A stretch of 64,000 nucleotides of DNA, from the IMG/VR virus record IMGVR_UViG_3300024312_000003, positions 116,491-180,490 of that record, one strand, 5' to 3'. Source of the DNA: a virus. The position numbers and the translations under genes were made by a program. The notes beneath the pieces are model-generated. The model searched no databases. It was not told the DNA's origin and saw only the letters and a program-made list of their open reading frames with translations. Below are positions 5,017 through 46,890 of the stretch, in pieces; position 1 is the stretch's first letter; every line of letters starts with the position of its first letter.

Positions 5017-5419
5017 ATGAAAATAAAAAAGACTTAAAAGTGATCTTGTAGGCGGATACTCATTTTGGTGCCCGGCTTGCAATGAGCGACATGTCTATTA
5101 TACTGAACGCTATGATGGGAAACAACATCCGATCTGGGGATTCAATAACAACGAAGAATGTCCCACATTCACGCCTAGTTTAAACATGACTTCTATCAGG
5201 CATAAAACAATGACTGATGAAGATTGGATTGAATACGACAAATTAGTAGCTGAACAAGGTGAAAGAGCACCATTAAACCATCCTAAGTTCAGATATGTCT
5301 GCCATCTTTTCATTACTGATGGTAAAATCATTTATTGCGGAGATTGTACGCACGAATATGCTGGTAAAACAATAGACTTACCAGATATTCCTGAGCACAC
5401 TCAAAAAATTAAATCGTGA
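5017..5419 (+). pseudogene. Frameshifted Cys/His-rich (DUF6527-like) gene
   Basis: RBS AAGGTG plus ATG 5017 stops at 5035-5037. The +1 frame after the A6 run (5025-5030) reads ...FWCPACNERH...WGFNNNEECPTFTPSL...CHLFITDGKIIYCGDCTHEYAGKTIDLPD. Confidence 0.65.
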
Positions 5420-5466
5420 TATAAAATAATAAAAGAGGTAGGGATTTCTCCCTACCTCTTTTATGT

Positions 5467-5829
5467 TTACCACATCAACCATTCACGCCACTGACAGGGA
5501 AACTTAGCGATGAAAACAGGATCGTATTCACCACCAGAGTTCACCAACTTCAAAGCTTCACGCACGTTGTGACTCTCGTTCTCACGATTCCACTTCTTGC
5601 GATAGAACTTGGCGGGAGACCAAGCGTTGTAGTGTTTGGACTCACCGTGAATGGTGTGGTACTTCTCATTCTTCTCGCGTTCAGTCATCGGACGATACAC
5701 GCAGTATCCAGCGTGACCGTTACCGGTGTGGATGAACTTGTCGTATTCAGTGTAGAACCCGTTGACCTTCGAACCATACTTGTTCGGGTGTTCGAGTTCC
5801 CAGTTCTTGCGACGGAAAGTGCGACTCAT
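5467..5829 (-). CDS. Hypothetical basic phage protein
   Basis: MSRTFRRKN start, good RBS, terminator-like hairpin downstream. Confidence 0.7.
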   Translation of the reverse strand: MSRTFRRKNWELEHPNKYGSKVNGFYTEYDKFIHTGNGHAGYCVYRPMTEREKNEKYHTIHGESKHYNAWSPAKFYRKKWNRENESHNVREALKLVNSGGEYDPVFIAKFPCQWREWLMW

Positions 5830-5902
5830 CTTTGATTCTCCTATGTGATCTACATAGGCGAGTCGTGACGTATTGTTTCATCAGAAATTTTTTCATACTG
5901 TT

Positions 5903-6574
5903 TTACTTCACAACGATTTGATCTCCACAATAGGAGCGAATGATGTGGTTGCCTTTATCGCGTCCATACGAAATCCCAATTTGCTTGATCCAGTCTTTGT
6001 AAGACCCATCAAACTTTGTAAAGGTGTTATCACCTTTGTAATCTGGATCAGACCAAACAAAATTACCATGAGGAGTTTCAACAAAGAACTTTTGGCCAAA
6101 GTCCCATGAGAAATGACCGACGGAGTTCAAGAGTTGTTCGCGGTTGATTTCAGTTTGAGCTGTTTTGATTTCCATTTCTTTTCCTTCGATTGCTTTAACC
6201 ATCTTAAGAGTGGTCTCGAATATGGGGTTTTCGTAAAGCTTGTCCTGCGCAAACTTTAGAAGAGATAGAACTGCTCTCAATGAACCAGTGGCGTGATCGA
6301 ATGGAATATATCCATCTGTTCGATGATCTAGTTCGCTTAGATTGGCTGGATTATGAAATTCATGATTTTGTGCAAGAACATTCCAACACAGAACCGCATC
6401 TTCCCATAAATCGTAAGACTTAGGATCGGTTATATCAACACCTACCCCAGAAGCTTGGCTTGCTACGCAATCTGCAAGATATGGTAGTTTATGTCCTGTT
6501 GACAAAGCGACGACTACCGTGTTATTCGTGATGTAAACTGAATATGGTTTGATTTCTTTCATCTTTAACTCCAA
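5903..6574 (-). CDS. Hypothetical protein
   Basis: 223-aa ORF. Confidence 0.7.
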   Translation of the reverse strand: MELKMKEIKPYSVYITNNTVVVALSTGHKLPYLADCVASQASGVGVDITDPKSYDLWEDAVLCWNVLAQNHEFHNPANLSELDHRTDGYIPFDHATGSLRAVLSLLKFAQDKLYENPIFETTLKMVKAIEGKEMEIKTAQTEINREQLLNSVGHFSWDFGQKFFVETPHGNFVWSDPDYKGDNTFTKFDGSYKDWIKQIGISYGRDKGNHIIRSYCGDQIVVK

Positions 6575-8761: not shown

Positions 8762-9265
8762 TCAGATAACAATAGCTTTGTTAATAACCACATCCTCGAC
8801 AGGAACATCCATATGCATTCCACGCCGACCTGTCTTGACTTTTTCAATTTGGTCAACAACTTCGAAACCGCTGATGACTTTACCGAAAACAGCGTAACCC
8901 CATCCTTGCTGTGTCTCAGACTTGAAGTTCAGAAAATCATTATTGGCTGTATTAATGAAAAACTGAGCCGAAGCAGAATGTGGGTCTGAAGTACGAGCCA
9001 TTGAAATGGTGTACTTTTCATTTCCCAAACCATTGTTTGCTTCGTTCTTAATAGGTTCTTTAGATGGAAGTTTATCCTTCATTCCAGAAAGAAAACCACC
9101 TGCCTGAATCATGAAACCTTTGATGACTCGATGAAAGGTGACTCCTTCATAGAATCCCTTTTCCACATAATCGATGAAATTAGAAACAGAACTAGGAGCT
9201 GCTTCTTCATTCAGTTCAATTTGGATGTTACCAACATTGGTTTGCAATTCTACAATCTTTGTCAT
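8762..9265 (-). CDS. ppiB: Cyclophilin-type peptidyl-prolyl cis-trans isomerase
   Basis: [43 protein letters not shown]. Confidence 0.97.
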
Positions 9266-9269
9266 TACT

Positions 9270-9790
9270 ATCTTTCAGTGAAAAGGAAACGGTTCTCGGA
9301 TTGACACCACGAGGCCAATCTTGACATCAACCCGGCAACCGTCGACTGTTACTTCTATTTGCAAAGATAGGTGATAACTCACCTGTTGTATATAAGGTCA
9401 CATCTCTTTACTGATGCTTCTCCGCTACCTGCAGATAAAGGGCTATTCTAGCTTCTAAGGGAACTGGCATTATTCCCTCCACCGTCAACCAATCACAAGG
9501 TAAGTCAACCACTAGGGTGTCTCAAAACCAAGCGACCAATTAACACGAATAATCGCATTGCTAATATAAATCAGTATAAGTCAAAATGCGACAAATGACT
9601 TTACTTTACAGGTCGTTTACCATACTAATGTTTCTTCAACATATTCTGGCCTGTGTGACTACGACTCCACTCATATCTCTTATTCCTTTCGTTCCTTATT
9701 ATGTTGTATCAGGGAAAATCAGAGCACCAGGAGTAATGGTGGGCTTTTCAAATTAAACAGTTACCTTGTAAAAAGTAACTATCTTGTTCA
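9270..9790 (-). ncRNA. Candidate large structured non-coding RNA
   Basis: 557-nt intergenic gap with no ORF of 60 aa or more, several hairpins, one H-type pseudoknot, promoter-like ACATATTAC immediately upstream. Confidence 0.45.
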
Positions 9791-9795
9791 AGTTA

Positions 9796-9804
9796 GTAAT
9801 ATGT
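9796..9804 (-). promoter_or_regulatory. Putative phage RNAP promoter ACATATTAC
   Basis: Recurrent motif upstream of minus-strand units; resembles phiKZ early promoter TATATTAC. Confidence 0.45.
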
Positions 9805-9822
9805 TACTGTAATGTTTTTTAA

Positions 9823-10278
9823 TCAGCTCACTGTTGGTGAACCCGACATTTTGTTAGCAATAGATCGACACAAATCAAATTCTGAACGATCGTTCTTTGA
9901 TTGAATAACATGAATCATCCAATCTCGAATAATGTCGATTTCAGTTAGTTGAGTAATATGGATAATCGGAATATTCAAACGCTCACAAATCTGAATTTCT
10001 GCTTCAATTCCTTTTGATTCTTTCCAACCATCCATTTGATAGACAAGCATATACTTACAACTAGAAAGCATTGCTTCATCCAATCTACCCCAATTCTTCC
10101 AACCGCCTTCCATGGCATTTGGTGAGTGTTGAATTAGACCAACATTGTGTACAATTGGAGAGATGACGGGAATACCAGCATTAATTAGCTCAACTGCTTT
10201 TTCTGCAACTTGTTTAACTCTGGCTTCTTGAACAGACTTATCTGGATGAGAATATGGTGAAGCTAGATAACCCAACAT
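9823..10278 (-). CDS. DUF1937-like (nucleoside deoxyribosyltransferase-like fold) protein
   Basis: YLASPYSHPD, SPIVH, WKESKGI.AEI pattern. Confidence 0.75.
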   Translation of the reverse strand: MLGYLASPYSHPDKSVQEARVKQVAEKAVELINAGIPVISPIVHNVGLIQHSPNAMEGGWKNWGRLDEAMLSSCKYMLVYQMDGWKESKGIEAEIQICERLNIPIIHITQLTEIDIIRDWMIHVIQSKNDRSEFDLCRSIANKMSGSPTVS

Positions 10279-38418: not shown

Positions 38419-38755
38419 TGTTGAGTTCAATATGGTTCGTTAATCCATACCCGCACCATGACGTGCAGCTGCATGTTTCCATGCATGACCAGACTATATC
38501 ATCTTTCCTATTTGGAAAGCTTTCTGTTTCGAACCACTTGGTTCTACTCTACTTACTTCCAGCGTTTGCTGTGTTTTCGATAGTCGTTGAACGTGCCTCC
38601 AATCATTGGAGGATTCGCTGCTGGTTGTCCAATCCATCTCGTTTTCAAACCATGGCTTTGCTTTGCAGCTCGCAGTGGTGAAATGGCTCTAAGGAGTTTC
38701 TAGCAATTAAGAAAGTTTTCTAATGAGATTACTCTCAAAAGGCGCTCAGTAATTA
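38419..38755 (-). mobile_element. Group I intron in thyA (337 nt, no homing endonuclease)
   Basis: P AATTGCTAGAAAC, Q AACCAGCAGC, R GTTCAACGACTA, S GATATAGTCTG; P1 with U:G after CAGCGT; splits YQR|SADV. Confidence 0.92.
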
Positions 38756-39706
38756 ACGCTGATACAGAAGGCATGAAAGTCTACCACTAGGAATTCCAAT
38801 TTCCTTAGCAATCTTAGCAGCGATTTTGAAACCACTCTCTCCAGATTCTACAGCTTGAGTAATTTCGATTATTCGAGACTCATGACCAGCAGTAATGATA
38901 TCTGCGGTGATTTCTTCCAAAGGAATTGGTTCCACGTCAAACTGGAACAAGCAATGACATGCTGCCAAAGCCATTTTACCTTGAATAACATTATCTTGAG
39001 GACTAATGGTTTCGTCAGGCAGATCGGCAGGATTCCAGGCAGTAACAATGATGCGTCTAGAATAAGGACGATTCTTAATCGTATCAATTGCTTCTTGAAG
39101 CTGATCGATAACTAGACCTGATGGAGTTTTCCAATTGCGCCATTGTGCACCATATACTGGACCGAGATCACCGGATTTAGCAATCGTATATTCAACAAAT
39201 GGATTAACACCACCGTCAAGTAGAAACTTCATGGTTCCTTTAGTAAAACCATTCTTAAGTCCATCTTGCATGTATTCGTTTACTTTGGTACGAATAACAT
39301 CTAGTGGTTCTCCGATATTGTAAATACCAGATTCGATATCTGCTTTTTTCAGATAACCAATTACCTGTTCCTCATGCAGATTATGAGCTTTAGAATATTC
39401 TGAGATCAATTCATTAAAAGGACGAATTCTTTTAATGACAGCGTCTTCTTTAAGAGCCCAGCTGTCCCAGATGTGTACGTCTTTTTCAAGAAGATAATTG
39501 ATGTTGGTATCACCTTTGATGAACCAAATCAGCTCTTCAATGATTCCTCTGGTAAATACCTTCTTAGTCGTCAAAAGAGGAAAACCTTCTCGGAGATTAA
39601 AACGCATCATTGCACCAAAAATAGCAATCGTTCCAGTGTTGGTTCGATCGTCTCTCTCAGTGCCGTTTTCCAAAATATTCTTAACAAGATCTGTGTATTG
39701 TTTCAT
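38756..39706 (-). CDS. thyA: Thymidylate synthase exon 1 with large insertions
   Basis: DRT.TGT, GFPLLTTKK, EL.WF..G.TN, LGPVYG.QWR, ACH, YQR. Confidence 0.95.
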
Positions 39707-46800: not shown

Positions 46801-46890
46801 GTTGATTTATATTGGTGTTTATTCGAGTTAGTCATATGTATCTAAAAATATTTAGAACATAAAAGAGAGGTTTACCCTCTCTTTTATGTC

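Follow-up and report, generated by a model that had tools for sequence, protein, structure and literature searches.

An uncatalogued family of large structured RNAs in phiKZ-like jumbo phages of probable Burkholderiales hosts

What is encoded in more than half a kilobase of phage DNA that no recognizable gene occupies? The locus that raises this question lies in a stretch of 64,000 nucleotides (the window) from a 180-kb IMG/VR virus record, G000, that is about 65% complete. The preliminary description, made from the letters of the window, had singled out an ORF-free gap of 557 nt and proposed that it encodes a structured non-coding RNA with a promoter of its own. The gap is indeed free of any ORF of at least 60 amino acids. 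It extends from 9266 to 9822 between two genes on the minus strand, a DUF1937/nucleoside-deoxyribosyltransferase-like gene (9823–10278) and a cyclophilin gene (8762–9265), and its GC content is the same as that of the window. The minimum folding energy of the single sequence corresponds to z-scores of −2.0 (minus strand) and −0.8 (plus strand). Folding of this kind is hardly beyond chance (the most distant family member, introduced below, gives −0.7), and it is the comparative evidence that decides.

Relatives were reached through homologues of both flanking proteins in a collection of 5.8 billion proteins, which led to short metagenomic contigs. The corresponding gap in these contigs measures 546–552 nt between the same two flanking genes, or 595 nt with a different downstream gene in loci L018 and L019. 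The gaps align with that of the window, contain long invariant blocks, and are 98, 96, 88, 87.5, 76.5, and 74.4% identical to it in nucleotide sequence. In a divergent lineage (L015, L016, and L023), identity falls to about 70% and is confined to the last 200 nt. A pattern search of IMG/VR with a 21-nt invariant block added one further, distant member (L021/L026) in G001, a 261-kb record that is 95% complete; by blastn, locus L026 shares just 27 nt with the window. The same element is thus found at 12 loci, all on uncultured phage contigs, which represent only six lineages, several of them close kin. The RNA described below is about 510 nt long in the window and about 510–600 nt long across the family, and it is single-copy in G000 and in G001 alike.

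Searches elsewhere returned no further members. Queried by blastn with the locus and the invariant block, 50,697 phage records gave nothing or chance matches of 17–24 nt; IMG/VR scans with single proteins (both flanking proteins and one virion protein) found no relatives; and the invariant-block pattern gave chance matches only in a collection of bacterial genomes. Hits to a relaxed two-block pattern were dismissed, L031 because it lies inside a 248-aa ORF and L032 and L033 because they failed the covariance model. The four closest cultured phages showed no 3′ domain with our covariance models R1 and R3. For RP12, FLC4-3B, and RSL2, neither model gave a match; the first-pass filter had let no candidates through, and these negatives therefore weigh less than those of a full scan. 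The 3′-domain model R3 likewise had no match in the RaK2 or 121Q genomes, with G001 as a positive control at 114 bits. In the literature, we found no paper on a large structured RNA in any jumbo phage; a transcriptome study of phiKZ predicted one sRNA, of 75 nt, whose confirmation failed (PMC8244752).

Could the gap nevertheless be a gene in decay, several small ORFs that escaped annotation, or mere spacer? Short ORFs of 34–56 amino acids do occur in it, and the preliminary description had itself named decay of a coding gene as a danger to its proposal. But stop codons of all three kinds are numerous in all six frames, so that an alternative genetic code rescues no gene. Substitutions lack three-base periodicity, being distributed evenly over the codon positions (52/48/50 and 50/46/45) in comparisons with L011 and L018. 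The relatives often differ by indels of 1, 2, and 7 nt, and the 56-aa ORF, which is antisense, is disrupted by a 7-nt indel in L013, a relative of 96% identity. Moreover, the compensatory changes described next are specific to RNA pairing. We see no coding signal in stops, codon positions, or indels, and the chance that the gap is a decayed gene or a mere spacer is practically negligible.

The helices of the 5′, central, and 3′ domains (Table 1) are kept through many compensatory changes across the six lineages. Applied to seven sequences, RNAalifold proposed 128 pairs, and compensatory changes are seen in 32. For all three domains, pair counts were compared with controls in which the partners were slid by 1–3 columns and with shuffled controls (500 shuffles for the 3′ domain). 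The alignments were fitted to covariance models and compare related sequences, so that significance is overstated by the shuffle counts; safer measures are the slid controls and the number of distinct pair types, and these two agree. The preliminary description had proposed collecting homologues and looking for covariation, and the loci assembled here display strong compensatory change against slid and shuffled controls. Every helix that it had listed on the minus strand is present where it was placed, including the pseudoknot arms at 9578–9601 and their loop partner at 9553–9559. The supported pairs contain 104 G·U cells versus 3 A·C cells, and 95–97% of cells are paired on the minus strand versus 81–87% when the opposite strand is read. 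The folded molecule is therefore the minus-strand transcript, in the same sense as the flanking genes. As judged from these alignments, the locus is a conserved gene for a pseudoknotted RNA that belongs to a new family.

Table 1. Features of the RNA locus in window coordinates, ordered from 5′ to 3′ along the minus strand
Feature	Position	Strand	Remarks
Promoter-like core, 10 nt	9796–9805	minus	A-rich stretch upstream, reaching to about 9822
Stem P1 and hairpin P1a	9749–9791 (P1, 9786–9791 with 9753–9758; P1a, 9757–9782)	minus	P1 97% paired, one pair changed on both sides
Hairpin P2	9725–9741	minus	7-nt loop able to pair with 9668–9672 (candidate pseudoknot PK2)
Stem P3/P3a, variable insert at tip	9677–9724	minus	98% of cells paired, three pairs changed on both sides
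Near-invariant 13-nt segment, 5′/central junction	9660–9672	minus	Identical in the first four lineages, one base different in L015/L016
Central domain	9484–9672	minus	P5, P6 with PK1, three-tier P8
Three-tier stem P5/P5a/P5b	9608–9654	minus	93–100% paired; 8 of 13 pairs changed on both sides
Stem P6/P6a and PK1	9553–9605 (P6/P6a, 9573–9605)	minus	Loop 9585–9591 pairs with 9553–9559 (H-type)
Three-tier stem-loop P8/P8a/P9	9484–9544	minus	One shape, different sequences, in all five alignable lineages
3′ domain	9285–9483	minus	Closed, about 200 nt; five hairpins and a 22-pair terminal stem (9288–9343)
21-nt block, 20 invariant positions, 6-nt palindrome	9334–9354	minus	Mostly single-stranded, leads into the terminal stem
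Short tail, weak hairpin, no U-run	9266–9284	minus	Poorly conserved; abuts the cyclophilin start codon (9265)

The 3′ domain is the sole part common to all six lineages, and the only part that the two deepest lineages share. Model R1 scores the members at 187–234 bits and finds the distant G001 member at full length with 54 bits (E about 1e-12). When 11 sequences are aligned under the guidance of the model, 96.9% of cells are paired, versus 42–48% with slid partners; 19 of the 45 pairs have changed on both sides, versus 2–6 when slid, and a count as high was reached in 0 of the 500 shuffles. The 21-nt block is matched by all 12 loci, with A or G at its one variable position. The helices that the preliminary description had assigned to the 3′ junction are present. 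Its inner pairing of GATTGGC with GTCAATC, however, finds no support, and the helix that covaries there joins 9321–9333 to 9296–9308.

The central domain is similarly well paired. With the pseudoknot included, 95.5% of its cells are paired versus 25–37% when slid, and both-sided changes affect 20 of 40 pairs versus 0–4. Model R2, which covers this domain, recovers L015 (E = 7e-5) and L016 (E = 8e-4) at the expected place; searched with filters off, G001 yielded no central domain. In P8, the outer four pairs are 100% paired and the tip helix 89%, and 7 of these 8 pairs have changed on both sides. The H-type pseudoknot proposed earlier, PK1, is borne out by pairing in 97.9% of cells and by two pairs changed on both sides, from A–U to U–A, in L015/L016. 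Two competing pairings were dismissed. A local hairpin that would replace PK1 has fewer pairs in L011 and L015/L016, and it overlaps the foot of the covarying P8. RNAalifold also drew a long-range helix that joins the 5′ hairpin to the strand just ahead of the 3′ domain; it competes with the local P8, which covaries in all five lineages, and L015/L016 cannot form this helix. No loop palindrome is conserved across the lineages.

Support is weaker for the 5′ domain than for the other two: 93.5% of cells are paired, versus 37–47% when slid, and four pairs have changed on both sides. P1a is variable, in that every lineage has a 5′ hairpin there but its register differs. The loop of P2 and its partner in PK2 are invariant in four lineages; in L015/L016 both are altered and the pairing is kept. 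PK2 is nevertheless tentative because this is a single compensatory event and because the pairing overlaps the weak hairpin P4, helix P4 and PK2 being weak and mutually exclusive. A helix of 5 bp that would link the promoter motif to the 3′ domain was dismissed, as it is invariant and lies at or before the likely start of the RNA.

Where, then, might transcription begin? The preliminary description had read a promoter-like motif at 9796–9804, pointing into the gap, as the RNA's own promoter. The motif is present on the minus strand, does not vary among the four lineages that possess it, and is repeated in about 15 copies along the gene strand of the phage, all of which speaks for that reading. 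The 180-kb record has 15 copies on the gene strand versus 3 weaker ones on the other; only 1 of the 15 lies inside an ORF of at least 150 amino acids, and most are found 26–160 nt upstream of an ORF. Most copies also share the A-rich upstream stretch and similar downstream bases. The consensus layout is an A-rich stretch, a conserved spacer, and the 10-nt core, often with a short inverted repeat downstream; the copies in the window have their first bases at 46840, 46544, 44485, 22785, and 9805 (minus strand), and ten more lie outside it. Each of the phiKZ-like phages studied has a conserved AT-rich motif of about 10 nt centered near −10 of its early genes, and the early promoters of phiKZ itself combine an extended −10 box with an upstream T-rich element (PMC7598289, PMC8244752). 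The motif fits these published early promoters, and taken together the copies resemble a set of early promoters of a phiKZ-like phage. By this analogy, the RNA would be an early transcript, made from one of about 15 early-type promoter copies and starting near 9790, at the foot of P1. In the sister lineage L016, the RNA follows immediately on the CCA of a tRNA-Gly(CCC) gene that is itself preceded by promoter-like sequences, and there the 5′ end would instead be made by processing of the tRNA.

The other end of the molecule bears on how it acts. One possibility is a giant cis-acting leader, in which the RNA is part of the cyclophilin mRNA and controls its stability or translation. In the window lineage, we found no intrinsic terminator on the minus strand between the RNA and the cyclophilin gene, whose start codon follows 20 nt past the 3′ domain, so that the RNA of the window may stay attached to the cyclophilin mRNA. 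A terminator before cyclophilin is likewise lacking in L009, L011, and L015/L016/L023, with the start codon within about 20–45 nt. But a leader or riboswitch is recognized by a constant downstream gene and an expression platform, and here the gene that follows is cyclophilin in three lineages but an unrelated 104-aa ORF in L018/L019, and in G001 a strong intrinsic terminator ends the RNA directly. Further, the segment adjoining the start codon is the least conserved part, and leaders that reach 500 nt, combine three domains, and contain long invariant single strands have no known precedent. The upstream neighbor varies as well, being the DUF1937-type gene, the tRNA-Gly gene, or something else. 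Because the neighbors differ between lineages, the RNA is independent of any one gene, which argues for a trans-acting RNA over a leader. We therefore consider the leader unlikely and think that the RNA would be released or terminated as a discrete molecule.

If the RNA acts in trans, does it belong to a class already described? The preliminary description had left two options, a member of a class such as ROOL or GOLLD, or a new class, and had suggested scanning Rfam with ROOL, GOLLD, OLE, RNase P, and the group I and II introns in mind. In a cmscan against Rfam 15, the window locus had no match at gathering score or at E values up to 10, and L016, L026, L018, and L011 had none at the RNA at E up to 5; the same scans do detect tRNAs, tmRNA, and a group I intron. 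The lack of a match in five lineages indicates that the RNA is no member of the ROOL, GOLLD, OLE, RNase P, or intron families. Of the two options, then, the new class stands, given covariation in six lineages and no counterpart in Rfam, and membership in ROOL or GOLLD falls. For RNase P (RF00010, RF00011, and relatives), there was no match at E up to 10, and the strand that could mimic the 3′ side of P4 sits in a covarying local stem. The group I model (RF00028) finds nothing at the RNA locus. Elsewhere in the window it identifies an intron at 38469–38765 (minus strand), which matches the full Rfam model at 94 bits.

The likeness to known ornate RNAs is instead one of habit. Both ROOL and GOLLD form RNA-only cages, and such phage RNAs often lie near tRNA islands (PMC12286853). 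GOLLD (RF01998) comprises large structured phage RNAs in or beside tRNA islands, some members directly downstream of a tRNA. Its 3′ region is universal and conserved, its 5′ region varies, and a well-studied member is located downstream of a tRNA-Met (PMC12286853). The family described here has the same division, in that R1 and R3 find the G001 member at full length and R2 finds no central domain there. It differs from GOLLD in that the GOLLD model matches none of five lineages, in length (many GOLLD RNAs exceed 800 nt, versus about 510–600 nt here), and in being carried by phiKZ-like phages of probable Burkholderiales hosts. With ROOL (RF03087), the family shares size, several pseudoknots, carriage by phages, tRNA genes nearby, and the lack of a constant protein partner gene (PMC12286853); in the present case, tRNA genes lie 4–6 kb upstream in the window, a tRNA abuts the RNA in L016, and PK1 is supported. 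There is no match to the ROOL model, however, and the sequence and helix plan differ. OLE RNAs (RF01071) are also ornate, 500–600 nt long, and rich in long conserved single strands. In contrast to the present family, they are chromosomal in Gram-positive extremophiles and have partner protein genes, and the OLE model does not match here.

The genomic surroundings of the RNA repeatedly include genes connected with translation. In the window, the tRNA genes upstream number four, on the same strand as the RNA, and 8 kb downstream, also on that strand, there is a permuted tmRNA. In L016, the tRNA, the RNA, and a permuted tmRNA all fall within 6 kb. The full order in that locus is tRNA-Gly(CCC), RNA, cyclophilin, a BubE-family gene on the opposite strand, an HNH gene, and the permuted tmRNA (L016 coordinates 230–304 and 5648–5906; 1377–1778 and 5118–5615), an island arranged unlike that of the window. 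Both deep lineages also have a short PP-loop (TilS-like, PF01171) gene of 211 amino acids near the RNA. In G001 it is one gene downstream of the RNA (L026, 7590–8225), with two tRNAs 5 kb upstream, and in L009 it is 2.6 kb upstream of the RNA (1211–1846).

These neighbors could suggest a different kind of trans-acting molecule, namely a catalytic RNA, or the RNA subunit of a ribonucleoprotein, that matures or modifies the phage tRNAs or the two-piece tmRNA. An island of tRNA, TilS-like, and tmRNA genes accompanies the RNA in two deep lineages, the direct fusion to a tRNA in L016 would be in keeping with such an activity, and long invariant single-stranded segments are also seen in ribozyme cores. 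Yet at E values up to 10 there is no match to RNase P or to group I or II introns, even though the group I model does detect an intron elsewhere in the window. No protein gene is constantly linked to the RNA, and the 3′ domain alone is universal. We regard an enzyme of this sort as somewhat less likely even than the leader.

What phage carries the RNA, and in what host? The virion protein phrog_3013 of this phage is 42% identical to that of the Ralstonia phages RP12 and RP31, 41.6% to that of Burkholderia phage FLC9, and 37% to that of G001, and by this measure the carrier is phiKZ-like. Its cyclophilin is 69–75% identical to PpiB of Aquabacterium and other Burkholderiales and looks like a gene of host origin, and the tmRNA is of the beta-proteobacterial type. 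From these two similarities, the host is probably a member of the Burkholderiales. In FLC9, the cyclophilin match falls within a longer annotated protein. Pfam models of multisubunit RNA polymerases had no match in the 65%-complete record; the phage versions are very divergent, and this result is hence uninformative.

Phages of the phiKZ kind shield their DNA, and their transcripts are the exposed target. One could therefore imagine an early anti-defense decoy or sponge, an RNA that binds a host RNA-guided or RNA-binding defense factor in the cytoplasm, and both the kind of phage and the early-type promoter (PMC7598289) would suit this idea. The case is contextual, however. The RNA has no repeat, spacer-like, or toxin–antitoxin-like feature, and no defense or counter-defense gene has been identified adjoining it, so that we consider a decoy distinctly improbable. 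A promoter-driven, structured, non-coding transcript of about 0.5 kb could also be a replication primer or origin transcript, of the type of ColE1 RNA II or the T4 R-loop origins. But the RNA is single-copy, and cumulative GC skew does not turn at the locus, although in phages of this kind skew gives only weak guidance and the record is just 65% complete. In addition, its placement varies by lineage and includes fusion to a tRNA, and in G001 a terminator directly follows it. A role in priming is very improbable.

We thus favor, with a probability of roughly 0.6, the view that positions 9285–9791 (minus strand) encode a highly structured non-coding RNA about 510 nt long, which represents an uncatalogued family of phiKZ-like jumbo phages with probable Burkholderiales hosts and would act in trans in the manner of ROOL and GOLLD. 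Its action would depend on the fold: the invariant 3′ domain would form the functional core, and the 5′ two-thirds would serve as a scaffold particular to each lineage. By analogy, its most likely mode would be that of ROOL and GOLLD, an RNA architecture that either self-assembles or holds a tRNA, ribosome, or protein partner, and it may serve the translation-related gene island of the phage, with its tRNAs, TilS-like enzyme, and tmRNA. Our confidence in an architectural role tied to this island is moderate. A bolder form of this reading, which is doubtful at present, is that the family joins GOLLD and ROOL as a third and unrelated class of ornate phage RNAs able to self-assemble or hold cargo, and that it is made early and acts on the cytoplasmic translation apparatus (tRNA, tmRNA, or ribosome), or else that the 3′ domain is the core of a new ribozyme. 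If true, this would be the first such ornate RNA from phiKZ-like phages, which are of the nucleus-forming type, of Gram-negative hosts.

Several consequences would follow from the favored reading. Few natural RNAs longer than 500 nt have a conserved fold of the tertiary type, and each class so far has opened structural work. The present family would add an independent example, whose universal 3′ domain, at 200 nt, is compact enough for such work. It would also place a large non-coding RNA in the phiKZ-like phages, a group in which none has been reported so far. Finally, the repeated link with tRNA, TilS-like, and tmRNA genes offers a testable lead on the role of RNAs found in tRNA islands.

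Two further structured segments were noticed in the related phages. FLC9 has a 507-nt gap, gene-free as annotated, one gene upstream of its cyclophilin-like gene (L002, 2720–3226; positions 137441–137947 of the record). Its folding z-score is −3.5, and it has no relative among cultured phages. We considered it as a distant member of the family and dismissed it, as it has no sequence similarity to the family, no Rfam match, and no match to R1 or R3 with filters off; the gap may contain either a large RNA of an unrelated kind or an overlooked gene. In the tRNA region of G001, a 64-nt hairpin (L026, 3099–3162) scores 42 bits against a microRNA model (E = 8e-6), which is short of the gathering score. 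Although certainly no microRNA, the hairpin is strong and looks conserved.
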